This document shows positions 868 through 10,600 of a stretch of DNA of 13,716 nucleotides, piece by piece; the stretch's first letter is position 1, and the number at the start of each line of letters is the position of its first letter. The translations under genes and the position numbers were made by a program. The stretch lies in the IMG/VR virus record IMGVR_UViG_2778261086_000003, positions 1 through 13,716 of that record; one strand, given 5' to 3'. The notes under the pieces were generated by a model that saw nothing but the letters and a program-made list of their open reading frames with translations, searched no databases and was not told the DNA's origin. Origin of the DNA: a virus (taxonomy: Duplodnaviria > Heunggongvirae > Uroviricota > Caudoviricetes).

Positions 868-1229
868 ACCGTAGCCCCTTCTTGATATTTTTCAAACCAG
901 AACACAACCGGGTCAGATTTCATTTCAACCAATCCCATACGAACCAGCGCTTTGCCTTTCCCGGATGCAAGGAATTCACGACGACCATCACTGATAATTC
1001 GCCGATAATCTTCCAGGCTACTGCAATGCTTGTGCAGATTGCATGGGTGGCATGCCGGAACCATGTTGGATATATCGTCACGTTCCTGGTGAAGCATATT
1101 TCCATCAAAACGAATGACCGGTTTTACATGGTCTGCATGCCACTTTTCGCCAAGTTCACAGCCGCAATAAGCACAGCGACCGCCAAACTTCATGCGCAAT
1201 TCTGCACGTTGTTTTTTCGTCAGTGCCAT
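864..1229 (-). CDS. HNH endonuclease (122 aa)
   Basis: Start placed at the internal ATG (1229-1227), preceded by GGAG and lying immediately after the upstream gene's stop (1231-1233); the longer ORF-track start at 1391 would overlap the Ead-like gene. Protein carries an HNH-type motif: CAYCGC...HADHVKP...CHPCNLHKH. Confidence 0.75.
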   Translation of the reverse strand: MALTKKQRAELRMKFGGRCAYCGCELGEKWHADHVKPVIRFDGNMLHQERDDISNMVPACHPCNLHKHCSSLEDYRRIISDGRREFLASGKGKALVRMGLVEMKSDPVVFWFEKYQEGATV

Positions 1230-1230
1230 T

Positions 1231-1920
1231 TCACTCTCCTTTGATGCGAATGCCAGCGGAGCGCTCGGCTTCACTTTGTTCCCAAAACCACTTGTGAAGC
1301 GCCATAAGCTTTTCGTCAATCGGTGCATATTTGCGATTAAAGTAGGCCTGAGCATCTTTCTCAGATTTGTCCGGCAATTCGCCAGGGCCAAACAGTGTGT
1401 TATAAATCCATGCCAGTCCGCTTTTAGCGTCGCCAGTTGCCTGCCATTCGATAATCGCAGCCTGCATGACCAGAATGTTTTTCCCGATTAACAGGTCCAG
1501 TTCTTTGAACCGGTTGCGGATGTATGCATTCTCGCTTTGTAATTTTGCGTTGCGCTTCTCTGCGGCTTCCAGCTCAACACGCAGCTTCCCTACCGTTAGC
1601 GCAATTTCCTCGTTCTCCTGGTCGCGGCGTTTGATGTATTGCTGTTTTCTTTCCAGCTCATCCAGCAGCGCCAAGACGGTAGCGGGATTGGCTGCGGCGA
1701 TGAATTCAGCATTGGCCTGCTGTTCCATTTGGAAATCTTCATCGAAACCGCTTTCTGGATGTGCTCCTTCAATTCTGCAAATAGGAATATATCCAGCAAC
1801 TTCACGATGAATTAGCGCATCATCACCATCAAATCGGCTCTCTCCATATTCGAGCGACCACTCACCACACGTTGCTTTTTCTGCCTTGGCCCGCAGTGCC
1901 TGAGAGTTAATTTCGCTCAC
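1231..1920 (-). CDS. Ead/Ea22-like phage early protein (229 aa), coiled-coil rich
   Basis: 229-aa ORF with a GTG start at 1920 that overlaps the TraR-like stop (GTGA). Central region is charged and heptad-like (ELERKQQYIKRRDQENEEIALTVGKLRVELEAAEKRNAKLQ). Composition and position match Ead/Ea22-family proteins of lambdoid phages. Confidence 0.6.
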   Translation of the reverse strand: MSEINSQALRAKAEKATCGEWSLEYGESRFDGDDALIHREVAGYIPICRIEGAHPESGFDEDFQMEQQANAEFIAAANPATVLALLDELERKQQYIKRRDQENEEIALTVGKLRVELEAAEKRNAKLQSENAYIRNRFKELDLLIGKNILVMQAAIIEWQATGDAKSGLAWIYNTLFGPGELPDKSEKDAQAYFNRKYAPIDEKLMALHKWFWEQSEAERSAGIRIKGE

Positions 1921-2138
1921 TTCGAACCTCTCTGTTTACTGATAAGCTCCAGATCTTCCTGGCAACTTGCACAAGTCCGACAACCCTGAACGGCCAGGCG
2001 TCTTCGCTCATCTATGGGATCGCCACACTCACAACAATGAGTGGCAGATATAGCCTGGTGGTTCAGGCGGCGCATTTTTATTGCTGTGTTGCGCTGTAAT
2101 TCTTCAATTTCTGATGCTGAATCAATGATGTCTGCCAT
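1917..2138 (-). CDS. TraR/DksA-family C4 zinc-finger protein (73 aa, lambda Orf73-like)
   Basis: 73 aa with a C-x2-C...C-x2-C arrangement (CCECGDPIDERRRLAVQGCRTCASCQ) typical of TraR/DksA C4 zinc fingers. Same size and position as the TraR homologue of phage lambda (Orf73). Confidence 0.8.
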   Translation of the reverse strand: MADIIDSASEIEELQRNTAIKMRRLNHQAISATHCCECGDPIDERRRLAVQGCRTCASCQEDLELISKQRGSK

Positions 2139-2144
2139 CTTTCA

Positions 2145-2234
2145 TTAATCCCTGAATTGTTGGTTAATACGCTTGAGGGTGAATGCGAATAATAAAAAAG
2201 GAGCCTGTAGCTCCATGATGATTTTGTTTTTCAT
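2145..2234 (-). CDS. candidate micro-ORF, 29 aa (MKNKIIMELQAPFLLFAFTLKRINQQFRD)
   Basis: Not in the ORF track (below its length cut-off). ATG lies 2 nt after the stop of the upstream 71-aa gene; its TAA lies 6 nt before the TraR-like ATG. It exactly fills the only gap in a tightly coupled operon. Speculative. Confidence 0.25.
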   Translation of the reverse strand: MKNKIIMELQAPFLLFAFTLKRINQQFRD

Positions 2235-2236
2235 GC

Positions 2237-2452
2237 TCACCGTTCCTTAAAGACGCCGTTTAACATGCCGATCGCCAGGCTTAAATGAGTCGGTGTGAAT
2301 CCCATCAGCGTTACCGTTTCGCGGTGCTTCTTCAGTACGCTACGGCAAATGTCATCGACGTTTTTATCCGGAAACTGCTGTCTGGCTTTTTTGATTTCAG
2401 AATTAGCCTGACGGGCAATACTGCGAAGGGCGTTTTCTTGCTGAGGTGTCAT
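2237..2452 (-). CDS. hypothetical phage protein (71 aa from ATG at 2452; alternative 93-aa form from 2518)
   Basis: ORF 2237-2518. I prefer the internal ATG at 2452 because it forms an ATGA overlap with the stop of the 27-aa micro-ORF upstream. No family recognised. Confidence 0.5.
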   Translation of the reverse strand: MTPQQENALRSIARQANSEIKKARQQFPDKNVDDICRSVLKKHRETVTLMGFTPTHLSLAIGMLNGVFKER

Positions 2453-2532
2453 TGAACAAGTCCCATGTCGGCAAGCATAAGCACACAGAATATGAAGCCC
2501 GCTGCCAGAAAAATGCATTCAGTGGTTGTCAT
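2449..2532 (-). CDS. candidate micro-ORF, 27-aa hydrophobic peptide (MTTTECIFLAAGFIFCVLMLADMGLVQ)
   Basis: Hand-translated from the minus strand. Its ATG overlaps the stop of the 63-aa gene (ATGA, 2532-2529) and its TGA overlaps the ATG at 2452 (ATGA). One predicted transmembrane helix. Not in the ORF track. Confidence 0.3.
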   Translation of the reverse strand: MTTTECIFLAAGFIFCVLMLADMGLVQ

Positions 2533-2720
2533 ACCTGGTCTCTCTCATCTGCTTCTGCTTTCGCCACCATCATTTCCAGCTTTTGTGAAAGGGATGCGGC
2601 TAACGTATGAAATTCTTCGTCTGTTTCTACTGGTATTGGCACAAACCTGACTCCAATTTGAGCGAGGCTATGTGCCATCTCAATGCTCGTTCTTAACTCA
2701 ACAGGAGATGCTTTGTGCAT
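2529..2720 (-). CDS. hypothetical small phage protein (63 aa)
   Basis: First ORF of the leftward gene chain, acidic C-terminus (AKAEADERDQV). No confident family assignment. Confidence 0.5.
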   Translation of the reverse strand: MHKASPVELRTSIEMAHSLAQIGVRFVPIPVETDEEFHTLAASLSQKLEMMVAKAEADERDQV

Positions 2721-3046
2721 ACAGCTCCCCGTTTATTATTTATCTCCTCAGCCAGCCGCTGTGCTTTCAGGGGATTTCGGGTAACAGAAAGGCCGGGAAA
2801 TACCCAGCCTCGCTTTGTAACGGAGTAGACGAAAGTGATCGCGCCTATGAAACCAAGGACCTGGTTGATGTCGTAACCGGCGAAATCACTACTATCCAGT
2901 CGTTACGCCATACCTCCGATCTTGATACCGGAGAGATGTATGTCTTCCTGTGTAAGGTTGAAGCCTGGGCGATGAATATTGGCTGCCACCTGACTATTCC
3001 ACAGAGCTGCGAGTTTCAGCTGCTGCGCGACAAGCAGGAGGCGTAA
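2672..3046 (+). CDS. hypothetical protein, possibly the 3' remnant of a nin-region gene
   Basis: Reading frame ends at a TAA (3044-3046) that overlaps the ninE ATG. It has no convincing ATG with a ribosome-binding site, and its 5' end overlaps the divergent 63-aa gene. May be a truncated remnant left by a deletion. Confidence 0.3.
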   Translation: MPSQCSFLTQQEMLCAYSSPFIIYLLSQPLCFQGISGNRKAGKYPASLCNGVDESDRAYETKDLVDVVTGEITTIQSLRHTSDLDTGEMYVFLCKVEAWAMNIGCHLTIPQSCEFQLLRDKQEA

Positions 3047-3216
3047 TGGCTACACCGCTTATTCGTGTCATGAACGGACACATCTACAGAGTACCAAATC
3101 GTCGTAAGCGTAAACCTGAGCTGAAGCCATCCGAAATACCAACACTGCTCGGATATACCGCCAGCCTGGTTGATAAAAAATGGTTGCGACTGGCAGCAAG
3201 GAGGAGTCATGGCTGA
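3046..3216 (+). CDS. ninE: NinE protein (56 aa)
   Basis: Hand translation [56 protein letters not shown] matches the NinE family. AGGAGG lies 6 nt upstream; the stop overlaps the ybcO start region. Confidence 0.85.
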   Translation: MATPLIRVMNGHIYRVPNRRKRKPELKPSEIPTLLGYTASLVDKKWLRLAARRSHG

Positions 3217-3499
3217 TTTGAGAAAAGCAGCGCGTGGTCGGGAATGCCAGGTAAGAATCCCTGGCGTATGTAATGGCAACCCTGAAACGTCTGTACTGGC
3301 ACATATCCGGCTGACTGGATTGTGCGGCACCGGTACGAAACCGCCAGACCTGATTGCCACCATTGCATGTTCTGCCTGCCACGACGAAATCGACCGCCGC
3401 ACGCATTTTGTTGACGCTGGATATGCAAAAGAATGCGCGCTGGAAGGTATGGCGAGAACACAGGTTATCTGGCTGAAAGAGGGGGTTATTAAGGCGTGA
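3209..3499 (+). CDS. ybcO: YbcO-family nin-region protein (putative Zn-binding nuclease, 96 aa)
   Basis: [37 protein letters not shown]... with GGAGG at 3201-3205. Conserved Cys/His pattern. Sits in the ninE-ybcO-rusA order seen in DLP12-type prophages. Confidence 0.85.
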
Positions 3500-3858
3500 A
3501 TACCTACAGCATCACATTACCCTGGCCTCCGAGCAATAATCGCTATTACCGCCATAATCGCGGGCGCACGCACGTCAGCGCAGAGGGGCAGGCATACCGC
3601 GATAACGTCGCCCGAATCATTAAAAACGCAATGCTGGATATCGGCCTGGCTATGCCTGTGAAAATCCGCATTGAGTGCCACATGCCGGATCGCCGTCGCC
3701 GTGACCTGGATAATCTGCAAAAAGCCGCTTTTGACGCACTCACTAAAGCAGGTTTCTGGCTGGATGATGCTCAGGTCGTTGATTACCGCGTTGTGAAGAT
3801 GCCTGTTACCAAAGGTGGGAGGCTGGAACTGACCATCACCGAAATGGGGAATGAATGA
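3496..3858 (+). CDS. rusA: RusA Holliday-junction resolvase (120 aa)
   Basis: GTG start overlapping the ybcO stop (GTGA). Sequence [28 protein letters not shown]...[10 protein letters not shown] is recognisable as RusA. Confidence 0.9.
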
Positions 3859-3995: not shown

Positions 3996-4080
3996 AGTCA
4001 GAGATAACAATCAACTAATACTGTTTTGTTGATTTTTGCTTGTAATTGGCGTTCTGGTCTGATTTTTGTGGAGTAAGTTG

Positions 4081-4458
4081 ATGCGTGATATTCAGATGGT
4101 TCTTGAGCGTTGGGGAGCGTGGGCGGCTAATAATCATGAAGATGTGACCTGGTCGTCCATTGCCGCCGGTTTTAAGGGATTAATTACTTCAAAAGTAAAA
4201 TCTCGCCCGCAATGTTGTGACGATGACGCGATGATTATTTGCGGGTGCATGGCCCGTCTGAAAAAGAACAACAGCGATTTGCATGATTTATTGGTGGACT
4301 ATTATGTCGGCGGCATGACTTTTATGGCGCTTGCACGTAAGCATGGGCGATCTGATTGTTGGGTTGGCAGGATGCTCCAGAAAGCTGAGGGCGTAGTGGA
4401 GGGTATGCTGATGGTGTTGGATCTCCGATTGGAGATGGATGCTGATTGTTCGAAATAA
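4081..4458 (+). CDS. quuD: late-gene antiterminator Q (QuuD-like, 125 aa)
   Basis: ATG at 4081 preceded by GGAG (4070-4073); the ORF-track start at 4066 is a TTG extension. [24 protein letters not shown]... resembles DLP12/phage-82-type Q. Followed by a terminator, as expected for the pR'/tR' arrangement. Confidence 0.8.
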
Positions 4459-4558
4459 TTAAAGGAAAAGTTGCTGTCTGATTGTCATTAGTCTAACATT
4501 TTAAATGTTGGAATCGCAACGTAGTTATTATCATATAACAGCTTGTTTCCTGATTTAG
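4459..4558 (+). promoter_or_regulatory. putative late promoter and Q-utilisation region
   Basis: Position only: in lambdoid phages pR' and qut lie between Q and tR'. Weak -35/-10 candidates (TTGCTG...TAACAT) but no confident match. Confidence 0.3.
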
Positions 4559-4585
4559 CCAGCCTCCCCAAAGGCTGGTTTTTTT
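4559..4585 (+). terminator. rho-independent terminator (tR'-like)
   Basis: Stem CCAGCCT (4559-4565), loop CCCCAA, stem AGGCTGG (4572-4578), then TTTTTTT (4579-4585). Plus-strand only; the reverse read has no U-tract. Confidence 0.65.
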
Positions 4586-4613
4586 CTAATAAGTATTATT
4601 TCGGGTAGGGATT

Positions 4614-5138
4614 TTATTGTTTAACCCATAATAATTCATTGACATTGAATCCCAACTTTTGAGCGGTTCGCACATAGTCTGCTTTTACTTTATCTGGAAT
4701 AGTTGGGGTCCTTGCCAGAATCCATAGGTATTCTCTGTTCGGACCACTGACAAGAGCATACTTATACTCATCATCCAGTTTGATTACATTATAGCCACCA
4801 TAGAAGGGGCCAAAAAACGAAACCTTCAATGCTGCAGTTTTAGTATCTCCAGTAAAGTATGCTTTACCTTCGCTCTCGCTCCATTTATTTTTCGTTGGAT
4901 CGTATCCACGGTTAAGTACACGAATCCCTCCGTCGTTCCGTTTTCCATAAGTAGCGCTGACCTGTTCCAGATCACGTTCGAACCGGTTCTCGAGGCGAGC
5001 TATTTCATACCATTTTCCGAGGTAGCGGTTGGCGTCAAAATTTGTAATCGGCTGCACACCTTTAGGTGGTGTCGGGGCCTTACATGCTATAAGAGTGAAA
5101 GAGAGTGCAATGCCAGTCAACACAGGCCATAACTTCAT
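4614..5138 (-). CDS. Blc-family bacterial lipocalin, outer-membrane lipoprotein (174 aa)
   Basis: Signal peptide with lipobox (LIAC), then lipocalin signatures (NFDANRYLGKWYEIARLENRFE...YLWILARTP). Homologous to but distinct from chromosomal Blc. Lower GC than flanking phage genes and antisense to late transcription. Confidence 0.85.
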   Translation of the reverse strand: MKLWPVLTGIALSFTLIACKAPTPPKGVQPITNFDANRYLGKWYEIARLENRFERDLEQVSATYGKRNDGGIRVLNRGYDPTKNKWSESEGKAYFTGDTKTAALKVSFFGPFYGGYNVIKLDDEYKYALVSGPNREYLWILARTPTIPDKVKADYVRTAQKLGFNVNELLWVKQ

Positions 5139-5330
5139 AATAAATCCTGTACTTTTGATAGTTGAGAGTAAGTATGAAAGATAGATGATTACGACCGATC
5201 ACTTAAAGAACTTTCATACTATATTAGGAATAGTCCATAACAGAAAAATTGTCAGTGATGACGCCAGAAAGGCAATTTATTCCGTGCACTACACAGTTTA
5301 TGTGTTAATGAATTAGTCAAGGGGGAGAAT

Positions 5331-6290
5331 ATGATAAAAAAACCTGTGATTGGAATCAGCGGTTGTTTGGCCGGTTCTGCTGTTCGTTTTGATGGTGGTC
5401 ACAAAAGAGCTGACTTTTTAATGGACAAATTAGTGGAATGGGTAACATTCAGACCAGTATGTCCGGAAATGGCTATAGGGCTGCCAGTTCCGCGTCCTGC
5501 TCTACGTCTTGTGCGCTCGACGCAAGGAAATATACGGATGTGTTTCAGCCACGACCAGAATGAGGATGTGACAGAGAGAATGACAGAGTTTAGTCGTTCT
5601 TATATGGACAAATTAAAGGATGTATCGGGGTTTGTGGTTTGTGCTAAATCTCCCAGCTGTGGCATGGAGCGCGTGCGTGTCTATGATGAAAATGGTAATC
5701 GAGGTCGTAAAGATGGAGTGGGACTATTTACGAGTACTTTGATGGAAAAGTTTTCCTGGCTACCGGTTGAAGAGGATGGGCGATTACATGATCCAGTGCT
5801 TCGTGAGAATTTTGTTGAAAGAGTTTTTGCTTTGCATGAGCTCAATCACCTTTACAAGGAGAAATTATCAAGAAGAGAGTTATTAGCTTTTCATAGTCGT
5901 TATAAGCTTCAGTTGTTGGCGCATAGTCAGGCAGGCTATAAAGATATGGGACCATTTGTGGCTGCAATACACGAGTGGGCGGACCTTGAATCATACTTTG
6001 AGGTGTATCGTGATAATCTGATGGCGATTCTCAGAAAACCAGCATCACGTAAAAATCACACGAATGTGCTGATGCATATACAGGGGTATTTTAGTAATTA
6101 CTTAAGTACACGCCAGCGTAAAGAGTTGAGCGAGGTTATACTTAACTATCGCTTTGGCACATTGCCTCTTCTTGCGCCGTTGACTCTGCTGAAGCATTAT
6201 CTGGGTGAGTATCCTAATGATTACTTGCTTACACAGAATTACTTCGATCCCTATCCGGACGAACTGGCTCTAAGACTGATGGTAAATTAA
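5331..6290 (+). CDS. DUF523-DUF1722 fusion protein (RudS/TudS-like putative thionucleoside desulfidase, 319 aa)
   Basis: N-terminus has the DUF523-type Cys pattern (GISGCLAG, PVCPE, CAKSPSCGM), consistent with a [4Fe-4S] TudS-like fold. The C-terminal ~150 aa resemble the DUF1722 (YbgA-like) domain. GGAG 4 nt before the ATG. Domain call from memory, not HMM-verified. Confidence 0.65.
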   Translation: MIKKPVIGISGCLAGSAVRFDGGHKRADFLMDKLVEWVTFRPVCPEMAIGLPVPRPALRLVRSTQGNIRMCFSHDQNEDVTERMTEFSRSYMDKLKDVSGFVVCAKSPSCGMERVRVYDENGNRGRKDGVGLFTSTLMEKFSWLPVEEDGRLHDPVLRENFVERVFALHELNHLYKEKLSRRELLAFHSRYKLQLLAHSQAGYKDMGPFVAAIHEWADLESYFEVYRDNLMAILRKPASRKNHTNVLMHIQGYFSNYLSTRQRKELSEVILNYRFGTLPLLAPLTLLKHYLGEYPNDYLLTQNYFDPYPDELALRLMVN

Positions 6291-6641
6291 TTGTATGCGA
6301 TATCATCCAAAAGGATGAGTTCCTGCATGCAGGATATTTACAATCGTAAAAACTACACTATGATACCCAGAGTGTCAGTTTGTATAAAAACTCTGTTTAC
6401 GCTGAAGAAACAATTGAGATGCAACTTAAAGTTGGTAAACATGCCAGTCAAAATATATAATATTATGATTCCACGCAGCTATATATAATATAACAGATTG
6501 GTTTAATAATTTGTCTTTGTGAGTTAAATACATAATTTTATACTTGTGATGCAATGAAATTTTCCTTATTGTTGAACTGGCGAATATTGATTTTCCACCT
6601 ATACTTACCTGGTGTAACCCCAATGATATCAGGTGGATAAT

Positions 6642-7373
6642 ATGCCATACATATGTTCTATCATTTTGGTGTTGAACTCGTTTGATGTCCGAATTGGTAA
6701 AGAAGATATTTTGTTTAAAAAAGGAAGTGCTGTTCTCATTGATTACAATTTAAAAGATTTTTTTTCATCAAATATAGATCATGTAATGATCGTAGATGTT
6801 GAAGAGAAAACAGTTAATGATTTCTTTAAAAGCAACACACTCTCACCTTTTTCTGTAAGAAGGTTTTATCCGGCATACTTGATGGTGGAATGTGAAGATT
6901 TTTCATTGTTAAAGAACTTGATTGCATGCTTGAATTGTGATGGCAGAACTGTGGATTTTGTTAGAAATCAAATATCACTTGCATGTCTTGCTATCTTATC
7001 TTCAGAGAAAATAGTGCAAAGTTTTTTATTTGGATGTCTTAATAGTTTAGGAAGTAAAGTTAAGGCTATTATTCACACGGATATATCTGCAGCATGGAGA
7101 CTTTGTGATATATCTTCAAGACTGTATCTGAGTGAAAGTCTGTTAAAAAGAAAATTAAAGCACGAAGGCTTATCATTTAGTAAGTTAATTCTTGAAGAGC
7201 GAATGGTGATGGCGGAAAGGTTATTAAGCTACAATTTATATTCTGTTGGAAAAGTTGCTGAGATATGCGGTTATGAAAACACGTCATATTTTGTAAGTGT
7301 TTTCAGAAGATATTTTGGTGTTCCTCCCCATCAATATTCATCAAGATTTTTTTTAGAAAAAGACATGATGTAA
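6642..7373 (+). CDS. AraC/XylS-family transcriptional regulator (243 aa)
   Basis: C-terminal AraC-type HTH region (LLKRKLKHEGLSFSKLILEERMVMAERLL...VGKVAEICGYENTSYFVSVFRRYFGVPPHQY). ATG at 6642 with AGGTGG 5 nt upstream; the ORF-track start at 6633 is a GTG extension. Very AT-rich gene and leader. Confidence 0.75.
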   Translation: MPYICSIILVLNSFDVRIGKEDILFKKGSAVLIDYNLKDFFSSNIDHVMIVDVEEKTVNDFFKSNTLSPFSVRRFYPAYLMVECEDFSLLKNLIACLNCDGRTVDFVRNQISLACLAILSSEKIVQSFLFGCLNSLGSKVKAIIHTDISAAWRLCDISSRLYLSESLLKRKLKHEGLSFSKLILEERMVMAERLLSYNLYSVGKVAEICGYENTSYFVSVFRRYFGVPPHQYSSRFFLEKDMM

Positions 7374-7561: not shown

Positions 7562-7777
7562 ATGAAATCTATGGATAAGTTAACAACGGGCATTGCCTAC
7601 GGTACCTCCGCAGGCAGTGCTGGCTACTGGTTTTTACAGCTGCTCGATAAAGTCACGCCCTCACAGTGGGCAGCAATAGGTGTATTGGGTAGTCTGGTAT
7701 TTGGCCTGCTGACGTACCTGACAAACCTTTATTTCAAGATTAAAGAAGATAAGCGCAAGGCTGCGAGAGGTGAATAA
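7562..7777 (+). CDS. essD: class II holin (phage 21 S21-like pinholin, 71 aa)
   Basis: [26 protein letters not shown]...; two transmembrane segments; dual-start motif Met1-Lys-Ser-Met4. GGAGGTGAGG ribosome-binding site. Stop overlaps the endolysin ATG (TAATG). Symbol follows DLP12 naming. Confidence 0.85.
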
Positions 7778-8274: not shown

Positions 8275-8503
8275 GTAGAGTAACCGCGATTATGGTTCGA
8301 AATGGGATGTTATCCGTGAACGTGTGCTCAAGCGTGACAAAGGACTGTGTCAGTTATGTCTGCGTGGTGGTGTGGTGCGTGAGGCGAAAACCGTTGACCA
8401 CATCATCCCTAAAGCACATGGCGGCACTGATGCCGACAGCAATCTGCAGAGCCTGTGCTGGCCGTGTCATAAGGCGAAGACGGCCCGTGAACGGCTGAAG
8501 TAA
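8271..8503 (+). pseudogene. Rz (spanin) start fused to the 3' fragment of an HNH endonuclease gene
   Basis: ATG at 8271 encodes MSRVTAI, identical to the first seven residues of lambda-type Rz, then diverges. A different frame (from ~8279, after an in-frame TAG at 8276-8278, to TAA 8501-8503) encodes SNRDYGSKWDVIRERVLKRDKGLCQLC...DHIIPKAHGGTDADSNLQSLCWPCHKAKTARERLK, an HNH C-terminus with no start codon. Confidence 0.6.
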
Positions 8504-9123: not shown

Positions 9124-9938
9124 GCCGGAAATCTTACCCCAACGTAAATGCTGCCAATCAGTATGCCCGGGATGTCGTGCGCGGAAAGATTGTGGCCTGC
9201 CAGTTTGTGATTCAGGCCTGCCAGCGCCATCTTGATGACCTGATGGAGGAAAAAAGTAAGTCGTTTCGTTACCGCTTCGACAAGGACCTGGCTGAACGGG
9301 CCGCGAAATTTATTCAGCTGTTGCCGCACACCAAGGGTGAGTGGGCATTTAAGAGGATGCCCATCACGCTGGAGCCGTGGCAGCTCTTTGTGATCTGCTG
9401 CGCGTTTGGCTGGGTCAATAAAGGCTCCCGGCTGCGCCGCTTCTGTGAGGTGTATACCGAAATCCCCCGTAAGAACGGCAAATCGGCAATCTCTGCCGGT
9501 GTCGCCCTGTATTGTTTTGCCTGTGATAACGAGTTTGGCGCGGAAGTGTATTCCGGTGCCACGACAGAGAAACAGGCGTGGGAAGTCTTTCGCCCGGCGC
9601 GACTGATGTGTAAACGCACACCCATGCTGACGGAAGCGTTCGGGATTGAGGTTAACGCCTCAAACATGAACCGTCCGGAGGATGGCGCGCGGTTTGAACC
9701 GCTGATCGGCAACCCCGGTGATGGTTCATCACCCCACTGTGCGGTGGTGGATGAATATCACGAGCACGCCACCGATGCGCTTTATACCACGATGCTTACC
9801 GGGATGGGGGCGCGACGTCAGCCACTGATGTGGGCCATCACCACCGCCGGGTACAACATTGAGGGGCCGTGCTACGACAAGCGGCGGGAAGTTATCGAGA
9901 TGCTCAACGGTTCGGTATCAAATCGGATGGCACGGTGA
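9120..9938 (+). pseudogene. terminase large subunit, 3'-truncated (N-terminal ATPase domain only, 272 codons)
   Basis: Walker A motif (EIPRKNGKS) and ATPase-domain sequence present. The reading frame stops after ...EMLNGSV, whereas intact large terminases are roughly twice this length. Downstream sequence switches to unrelated glycine-rich coding. Confidence 0.8.
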
Positions 9939-10600
9939 AAACGGCTCTCGAAAACCTTGGTTTGGGAGATGGCTCGGGGCGTTACAGCAAAACTGTCGTT
10001 TTTTCATCGTCGGGTTCATATACGTGGCCAGCTGACGTAAAACGAATTGACGTTATTCTGACTGCGGGGGGCGGCGGTGGCGGTGGATGTAACGCGGAGA
10101 ACGCAAATCAGACATTTTCAGGGGCTGGCGGAGGAGCCGGAGGTACTGTTTTTGCCACTATTTATGCGACAGACAACGATGCCGGGCCAGGGACCTATAC
10201 AGTGACAATTGGCAGCGGTGGTAGTGGTGCCAATGGGCCAGGGTCTGGAAATAATGGCGGTAATAGTTCGTTCATGACATTAACTGCGCTCGGCGGCCAG
10301 GGTGGGCAATGGGGCGGCGCTACAAATACCGCTGGCGGGCGCGGTGGCTCAGGCTCTGGCGGTTATAAAACTGAACAAGGCGGAGACGGTTCAGACGGAC
10401 AGGCGGGCCAGGCGCTATTAGTAGGCAATGGGGCATCGAGCTATTGGGGTGGCGGCGGCCGCGCTGGGCAACTGAGCGGTAATCCTGGAGTTTGCTCTGG
10501 CTCCGGCGGCGGGGGTGCATACGATAATAGCTATTCACACACGTCAGGACGTGGCGGGCACGGAGCTAATGGCGTGCTGGTAATTCGGGAGTTCATGTAA
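9869..10600 (+). CDS. glycine-rich tail-fibre C-terminal fragment (5' end missing; real start unknown)
   Basis: ORF of 243 codons overlapping the truncated terminase. Sequence ...[26 protein letters not shown]... followed by long GGxGG/GSG runs is characteristic of glycine-rich domains of phage tail fibres. Immediately followed by a tail fibre assembly gene. The first ~15 codons are probably terminase DNA read out of frame. Confidence 0.5.

Follow-up and report, generated by a model that had tools for sequence, protein, structure and literature searches.

The window, that is, the whole 13,716-nt stretch of viral DNA analysed here, carries on its minus strand an open reading frame of exactly 73 codons, which begins with an ATG at 2138 and ends with a TGA at 1917–1919. 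Its translation is MADIIDSASEIEELQRNTAIKMRRLNHQAISATHCCECGDPIDERRRLAVQGCRTCASCQEDLELISKQRGSK, and the ATG is preceded by a weak Shine–Dalgarno sequence, AGGGA, located 12–16 nt 5′ of it. The genes and signals at this locus are as follows.

1231–1920, minus strand: ea22-like gene (Pfam Ead_Ea22), the GTG start of which overlaps the orf73 stop (GTGA), coupled as in lambda
1917–2138, minus strand: orf73, encoding a 73-aa TraR-family C4 zinc-finger protein, assigned by sequence as the lambda Orf73 orthologue, with A49 here and V49 in lambda
2188–2225, minus strand: intergenic element t2/p1 upstream of orf73, a 6-bp GC-rich hairpin (2214–2200) followed by TTTTTTATTATT, with one mismatch to lambda
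2237–2452, minus strand: orf61, long form, 71 aa from an internal Met, with the reading frame open from 2518
2529–2720, minus strand: orf63 (DUF1382), intact, 63 aa
2693–2845, minus strand: 3′ remnant of orf60a (DUF1317), with about the first 9 codons missing, containing the predicted terminator t1
2779–2820, minus strand: t1, predicted terminator inside orf60a, with a 9-bp stem, −18.5 kcal/mol and z = −3.2
2845–2848, no strand: deletion junction, at which orf60a ends with ...GATCGCGCC (2845) and the antisense ybcN starts with TATGAAACC (2846), with a 2-nt TA ambiguity or microhomology
2846–3046, plus strand: 3′ fragment of the nin-region gene ybcN, oriented divergently to the exo-xis block and followed by ninE, ybcO, rusA, ylcG, and Q

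The exo-xis block is ordered orf60a′-orf63-orf61-orf73-ea22, in which the 2693 end of the orf60a remnant was placed from the 28-nt overlap with orf63 in Ec40743. The DNA is collinear with lambda from orf63 to the first codons of ea22, including the orf61–orf73 intergenic hairpin and the GTGA overlap, while the ea22 allele 3′ of orf73 departs from lambda after about 16 nt. The long form of orf61 has 6 A here vs. a 7-A run in lambda, where that run truncates Orf61. The left arm, which comprises the DUF551, HNH, ea22-like, orf73, orf61, and orf63 genes, is laid out as in Stx1a-converting phages, and the orf63, long orf61, ea22-like, HNH, and DUF551 genes are all as intact as orf73.

The encoded protein was then compared with protein families and phage records. 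It matched Pfam PF01258 (zf-dskA_traR) with 35.8 bits (gathering cut-off 24.9) and PHROG 54 ("DksA-like zinc-finger protein") at 2e-25, while its score on the TraR subfamily model of NCBIfam, TIGR02419 (C4_traR_proteo), was 55.7, slightly below the cut-off of 59.7. Proteins identical to it are named "TraR/DksA family transcriptional regulator" in RefSeq. When 50,697 phage records were searched by tblastn, the protein of phage 434 was identical to it at 73/73 residues (100%), and those of lambda and several Stx phages at 72/73 (98.6%, E ~1e-41). Direct alignment with the lambda record used placed the sole difference at residue 49, A here vs. V in lambda, and A49 is also what phage 434 and most homologues carry. 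The matching gene is labelled a TraR/YbiI family protein in the lambda record, where it lies between orf61 and ea22. The best sequence matches in the PDB were E. coli YbiI (2KGO), at the top, and the F-plasmid TraR with RNA polymerase (5W1S, 6N57), with the 5W1S TraR chain aligned to residues 1–64 of the 73.

Judged by these matches, the ORF at 1917–2138 is an intact orthologue of lambda orf73 that belongs to the TraR branch of the DksA/TraR family. The sequence-only reading had described a 73-aa C4 zinc-finger protein of the TraR/DksA family, which the PF01258 and PHROG 54 matches and the four aligned cysteine ligands (see below) bear out. It had also noted the same size as lambda Orf73, which is correct but understated, as the gene is an orthologue in the same gene block that differs from lambda at one residue and from phage 434 at none.

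Two neighbouring assignments within the family were tried and rejected. The F-plasmid TraR equivalog model NF010268 scored 26.3 bits vs. a cut-off of 108, and lambdoid phage genes surround orf73 with no tra operon. DksA proper does not fit a protein of 73 aa that has a single N-terminal helix and no coiled coil; in Foldseek, the Orf73 model aligned to DksA chains over part of the length, with a target-normalised TM of ~0.30.

Hallmarks of the TraR branch and the predicted mechanism

The alignment with lambda Orf73 and F-plasmid TraR that the sequence-only reading had proposed as a check showed both the acidic motif and the zinc ligands to be present. In detail, the DxxDxA motif of Orf73 consists of D3, D6, and A8, aligned to D3, D6, and A8 of TraR, and the ligands C35-x2-C38 and C56-x2-C59, separated by 17 residues (CxxC-17-CxxC), align to TraR C37, C40, C58, and C61. 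R46/R47 align to TraR R48/R49, the residues that contact the rim helices and β′ Si3, and E44-R-R-R47-L48 forms the basic motif ExxRL as described for lambda Orf73. The C-terminal helix carries the acidic residues E61, D62, and E64, a hallmark for the β Si1 contact. Two extra cysteines, C36 and C53, are also found. Among 32 homologues with 57–100% identity, M1-A2-D3-I4, D6, A8, C35, C56, and C59 were invariant, and C38, R47, and C53 were conserved in at least 90%, C38 and C53 each in 31 of the 32.

The AlphaFold2 model of Orf73 (mean pLDDT 81) predicted a helix at residues 5–27, a zinc ribbon, a short helix at 44–49, and a helix at 57–69, with DxxDxA placed at the start of the single N-terminal helix and not at a coiled-coil tip. 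The best PDB match of this model in Foldseek was the RNA polymerase-bound TraR 6n57_M (E 9.6e-4, probability 1.00, TM 0.57), followed by 5w1s_M and then by YbiI and DksA.

The function of lambda Orf73 has been determined directly. Purified lambda Orf73 binds RNA polymerase and, at concentrations below those that DksA requires, inhibits rrnB P1 and rpsT P2, and the inhibition of both promoters was seen in vitro and in vivo (PMC9239242, Gopalkrishnan et al., 2022, mBio). The protein inhibits promoters for rRNA and r-proteins, slows growth of the host, and raises the burst size, and substitutions in DxxDxA lower its activity (PMC9239242). The phage yield of wild-type lysogens was 3- to 4-fold above that of lysogens without an intact orf73 or with D3A/D6A (PMC9239242). 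Lambda Orf73 complemented a dksA-null strain, as did all five TraR homologues tested, and TraR-type proteins act without ppGpp (PMC9239242). In TraR–RNA polymerase structures, as cited in the same paper, the N-terminal helix occupies the secondary channel, the globular domain rests against the rim helices and β′ Si3, and the C-terminal helix contacts β Si1.

Based on the 72/73 identity, we infer that the mechanism of lambda Orf73 and F TraR carries over to the A49 allele. If so, Orf73 would not bind DNA and its target would be RNA polymerase, with the N-terminal helix entering the secondary channel and DxxDxA (D3, D6, A8) lying beside the active site, the globular C4 zinc-ribbon domain docking with R46/R47 on the β′ rim helices and Si3, and the C-terminal helix touching β Si1. 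In a working lambdoid phage, orf73 is transcribed early from pL with N antitermination, and the action of the protein would shift resources toward phage production. The binding to the secondary channel and the inhibition of rRNA promoters that the sequence-only reading had suggested are therefore published properties of lambda Orf73 (PMC9239242), from which the protein here differs at 1 residue. The molecular function of orf73 is thus already known from the literature, and the present analysis adds nothing new on RNA polymerase regulation.

Deletion junctions and expression signals

The right end of the window carries an intS integrase beside tRNA-Arg (argW) and yfdC, which we take to be a CPS-53/KpLE1-type site. 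The earlier description of the element as a degraded prophage holds, since at least three breakpoints were found in comparison with fuller relatives, at 2845/2846, 8285–8293, and 9916. At 2845/2846, the orf60a remnant and the 3′ half of ybcN are joined back-to-back, and exo, bet, gam, kil, cIII, ea10, ral, N, pL, the repressor (cI), cro, cII, O, P, ren, and the 5′ half of ybcN are lost. At 8285–8293, ~1.35 kb is gone, from the gene after rrrD to the N-terminus of an HNH gene, and at 9916 ~4.9 kb is gone, which comprises the terminase C-terminus and the portal, protease, and tail genes.

Very similar orf60a/ybcN fusions were observed in three of the 5426 complete genomes, TOK-001, LR-64-1, and APEC_AN-25. 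The fusions lie at att-lambda next to ybhC in TOK-001, at argU/intD in LR-64-1, and at argW/intS in the window, with orf73 intact. The exact orf60a endpoint is common to the window and LR-64-1, and the exact ybcN endpoint to LR-64-1 and TOK-001; in addition, 32 bp more are missing from the window, and TOK-001 carries 28 additional bases. Since exact endpoints recur between pairs of junctions, one ancestral deletion was preferred and independent recurrent deletions behind the three similar junctions were rejected. The junction sequences fit a single ancestral event, the product of which would later have diversified and moved between prophages by homologous recombination. These results show that the exo-xis/nin remnant block persists and spreads, but is rare (3/5426 genomes), and that orf73 is not singled out within it.

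With pL, N, and the repressor absent from the gene content at 2845/2846, the native promoter of orf73 and its antiterminator are gone. In lambda and phage 24B, the terminators t1 (in orf60a) and t2 (between orf61 and orf73) and a BPROM promoter p1 that overlaps t2 have been predicted (Bloch et al., 2014, PMC4195576), and orf73 mRNA is below upstream mRNA in lambda (PMC4195576). Each of the three is kept here, with a single mismatch. The t2 hairpin with its T-run (2214–2200) lies 61 nt 5′ of the orf73 ATG, and the t1 and t2 hairpins fold better than shuffled controls (z about −3). Both would stand between any upstream transcription and orf73. A consensus scan of 1100–3600 found no σ70-like site on the minus strand; the weak minus-strand σ70 matches at 4234–4655, in or beside the Q and lipocalin genes, are more than 2 kb from orf73 and upstream of both t1 and t2. 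An Rfam scan of the whole window gave no match. Owing to the loss of pL and N and to the two predicted terminators upstream, this copy of orf73 is most likely silent or nearly so, as far as its sequence tells.

A weak autonomous promoter may nevertheless give pL-independent expression. The boxes of p1 within 2188–2225, −35 TCATCA and −10 TTTTATTAT, are unchanged from the BPROM predictions in lambda and 24B, and in phage 24B treated with H2O2, orf73 and ea22 were more highly expressed than the genes upstream (PMC4195576). The likeliest alternative to a silent gene is that the orphaned orf73 has been domesticated as a host modulator, expressed independently of pL (e.g., from p1 under oxidative or other stress) and maintained by selection as a ppGpp-independent brake on ribosome synthesis. 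However, p1 is a weak and purely computational promoter, since its −35 box matches 3/6 of the consensus, it overlaps the terminator hairpin, and the consensus scan missed it; the literature on p1 yielded no experimental validation.

Retention of orf73

Whether selection keeps the gene was evaluated from its intactness, divergence, and context. That all five TraR homologues tested complement a dksA-null strain makes a benefit to the host conceivable (PMC9239242), and deletion-bearing blocks with an intact orf73 occur at att-lambda, argU, and argW. Against domestication, a related junction was found in only 3/5426 complete genomes, and the neighbouring genes are as intact as orf73. Moreover, expression of Orf73 is strongly growth-inhibitory, as lambda Orf73 made from pL in a defective prophage lowered precursor rRNA to 29% and plating efficiency ~10^4-fold (PMC9239242). 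Constitutive expression would hence be costly and silence tolerated, and the loss of pL would render orf73 harmless rather than useful.

The divergence of the gene was also assayed. The dN/dS values were 0.05–0.25 across the orf73 family and 0.0–0.25 between copies, and the mostly synonymous differences between copies would accord with maintenance by selection. However, when the window was compared with lambda, Ec40743, TOK-001, and LR-64-1, mostly synonymous differences were found alike in orf63, orf61, and orf73. As dN/dS (0–0.25) was equally low in comparisons with intact phages and in orf63 and orf61, it was discarded as a selection test for the remnant. Further, the copy in LR-64-1 is intact but shorter by one codon, and because its 3′ end is recombinant, the divergence of orf73 is not datable to the time after the deletion. 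The low dN/dS would rather reflect a history in functional phages or recombinational import than selection within the remnant.

Among the 5426 complete E. coli genomes, 3316 carry orf73, often in multiple copies, and in four evenly sampled E. coli genomes it belongs to a normal pL operon that has a repressor gene upstream. A retention analysis on species-representative genomes was dropped, as most of its 99%-identical matches are almost certainly lambda control-DNA contamination. These matches fell in implausible hosts (Shewanella, Streptomyces, Paenibacillus, and Nanosynbacter MAGs), on contigs of ~48.4–48.5 kb or on tiny low-coverage ones, and ~9 genuine enterobacterial loci were left.

In the comparisons of intactness, divergence, and context, no evidence specific to orf73 for selective retention was found. 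The suggestion of the sequence-only reading that retention points to selection for modulating the host is therefore unsupported: pL, N, and the repressor are lost, two terminators lie upstream, the neighbours are equally intact, and hitch-hiking, small target size, and recency explain the retention. The gene would persist as a small, recently derived sequence physically linked to a conserved block, with host selection not the reason, and a target of 222 bp is unlikely to have been hit yet. Taken together, we regard domestication as a host modulator as improbable. Its fullest form, in which orf73 is active via p1 (possibly under oxidative stress) as a ppGpp-independent growth brake and the exo-xis/nin fusion block circulates as a selectively maintained cryptic module, appears distinctly improbable. 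The best joint explanation, which we consider highly probable, is that the gene is the lambda orf73 orthologue with a lambda-like mechanism, and that this copy is most likely silent or nearly so and is retained as a passenger without host selection.

The lambda-like mechanism in this explanation was weighed against a different primary role for the zinc finger, by which it would block host replication initiation (the "bin" phenotype of the exo-xis region) or bias the choice between lysis and lysogeny via another partner. Older genetics, as cited in PMC9239242, tied inhibited replication initiation to orf73, ea22, ea8.5, and orf55, and lower lysogenisation to an orf73 deletion. Yet lambda Orf73 inhibits the dnaA promoters at much higher concentrations only, and the effects on replication are explicable as secondary to rRNA inhibition (PMC9239242). 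Lambda Orf73, unlike TraR, gave at most weak activation of the three host promoters tested, possibly due to the extra cysteines (PMC9239242), and these two residues, C36 and the widely kept C53, also speak for a different primary role. The binding to RNA polymerase and the inhibition of rrnB P1 and rpsT P2 are, however, direct and are reduced by DxxDxA substitutions (PMC9239242), and we hold a different primary role to be very unlikely. A chance ORF or a pseudogene without coding capacity, to which the shortness of 73 codons and the weak Shine–Dalgarno sequence might point, is barely credible in view of the full-length phage matches (E ~1e-41), the Pfam profile match, a family dN/dS well below 1, and the expression of the lambda gene confirmed by ribosome profiling (as cited in PMC9239242).

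The lambda orf73 orthologue kept as a silent passenger thus remains the preferred reading. Its wider relevance is limited to the question whether cryptic prophages supply host-modulating small proteins. A potent and toxic regulator of RNA polymerase that is cut off from its repressor-controlled promoter would, if expressed, exemplify the domestication of a prophage gene; the evidence gathered points to a passenger in a recently degraded element, away from domestication.

Comparison with known systems

The closest known system is Orf73 of lambda and phage 434, and the lambda orf73 of the exo-xis region is the subject of Gopalkrishnan et al. (2022; PMC9239242) and of Zdrojewska et al. (2019). 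As in lambda, the gene here lies between orf61 and ea22, has the hairpin upstream, and overlaps ea22 at GTGA, and its product has the same DxxDxA motif, C4 ligands with two extra cysteines, and ExxRL motif. It differs from lambda in residue 49 (A here, V in lambda) and in its linkage to pL and N, which is severed here by the deletion.

Similar to Orf73, the F-plasmid TraR has 73 aa, an N-terminal helix with D3, D6, and A8, a CxxC-17-CxxC ribbon, an RR pair, and a C-terminal helix, and its structures (5W1S, 6N57) are the best structural match of the Orf73 model. In contrast, the identity of the two proteins is ~31%, and traR belongs to a tra operon vs. the phage pL operon of orf73. E. coli DksA and YbiI share with Orf73 the PF01258 zinc-finger domain and a DxxDxA motif presented to the RNA polymerase active site. 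However, DksA has 151 aa, bears the motif at the tip of a coiled coil, and is fully active only with ppGpp, whereas the Orf73 encoded here, with its single N-terminal helix, should by analogy act alone like TraR.

The orf60a/ybcN fusion at different integration sites

The same kind of back-to-back fusion between orf60a and ybcN, through which the immunity, replication and pL region was wholly lost, is carried at three different integration sites, but is rare among complete E. coli genomes (3 of 5426).

Window 2845-2848: back-to-back orf60a/ybcN fusion, argW/intS site
L056 (TOK-001 locus) 9280-9350: orf60a/ybcN fusion, att-lambda/ybhC site
L057 (LR-64-1 locus) 9280-9320: orf60a/ybcN fusion, argU/intD site

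Since same-kind fusions were found at three sites and exact endpoints were common pairwise, these results suggest that the fusion is one ancestral deletion module, which recombination shuffles among cryptic lambdoid prophages.

Other deletions and the moron-like insert

Compared with strain 2018-05-2CC, about 1.35 kb has been lost in a second internal deletion at window 8285-8293, whose flanks show a 9-bp overlap. This deletion takes out the lysis gene that follows rrrD, along with a DUF6979 gene and one hypothetical gene, and a short remnant is all that is left of an HNH gene. Further, the terminase large-subunit ORF, 272 aa vs. 577 aa in relatives, is fused at window 9916 to a glycine-rich tail-fibre fragment, where about 4.9 kb (portal, protease and tail genes) is absent in comparison with a relative, likewise degraded.

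8324-8503: HNH remnant, C-terminal 59 aa
9120-9938: shortened terminase large-subunit ORF
9869-10600: glycine-rich tail-fibre fragment

Between the Q antiterminator gene and the holin gene essD lies a moron-like insert (window 4614-7373) that shows conservation across many E. coli prophages, at this site as well as at others.

4066-4458: Q antiterminator gene
4614-5138, minus strand: lipocalin-family gene, in the insert
5331-6290: YbgA (DUF523+DUF1722) gene, in the insert
6633-7373: AraC-type HTH regulator, in the insert
7562-7777: holin essD

Variable genes and orf61 of the exo-xis region

Downstream of the ea22-like gene, where the exo-xis region is variable, lie an HNH ORF and a DUF551 gene. 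As about 160 nt are shared between the HNH ORF and the 3′ end of the ea22-like ORF, the true start of one of the two is probably further downstream than listed. At the A-run of orf61 (window ~2396-2401), 6 A are found vs. 7 A in the lambda record, in which the extra A causes a frameshift that truncates lambda Orf61 to 61 aa, as already on record (PMC8614690).

1-867, minus strand: DUF551 protein, 288 aa
864-1391, minus strand: HNH-endonuclease ORF, 175 aa, weak NinG-like match
2237-2518, minus strand: long form of orf61, 71 aa from an internal Met, 93 codons open

Orf73-like sequences and the extra cysteines

In the orf73 survey of species-representative genomes, loci L004-L039, L045-L047 and L050-L051 included matches with 94-100% identity to lambda Orf73 in assemblies labelled Shewanella, Bradyrhizobium, Paenibacillus, Streptomyces, Saccharopolyspora, Nanosynbacter MAGs and others. 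The contigs are either ~48.4-48.5 kb or very short with low coverage; these matches almost certainly reflect contamination of public assemblies by lambda control DNA rather than horizontal transfer.

Besides the four zinc ligands, Orf73 (window 1917-2138) has two cysteines, C36 and C53. Such extra residues were speculated to be the reason for absent transcription activation (mBio 2022; PMC9239242). C53 is kept in 31 of 32 Orf73-subfamily homologues, whereas F TraR has Val at this position.
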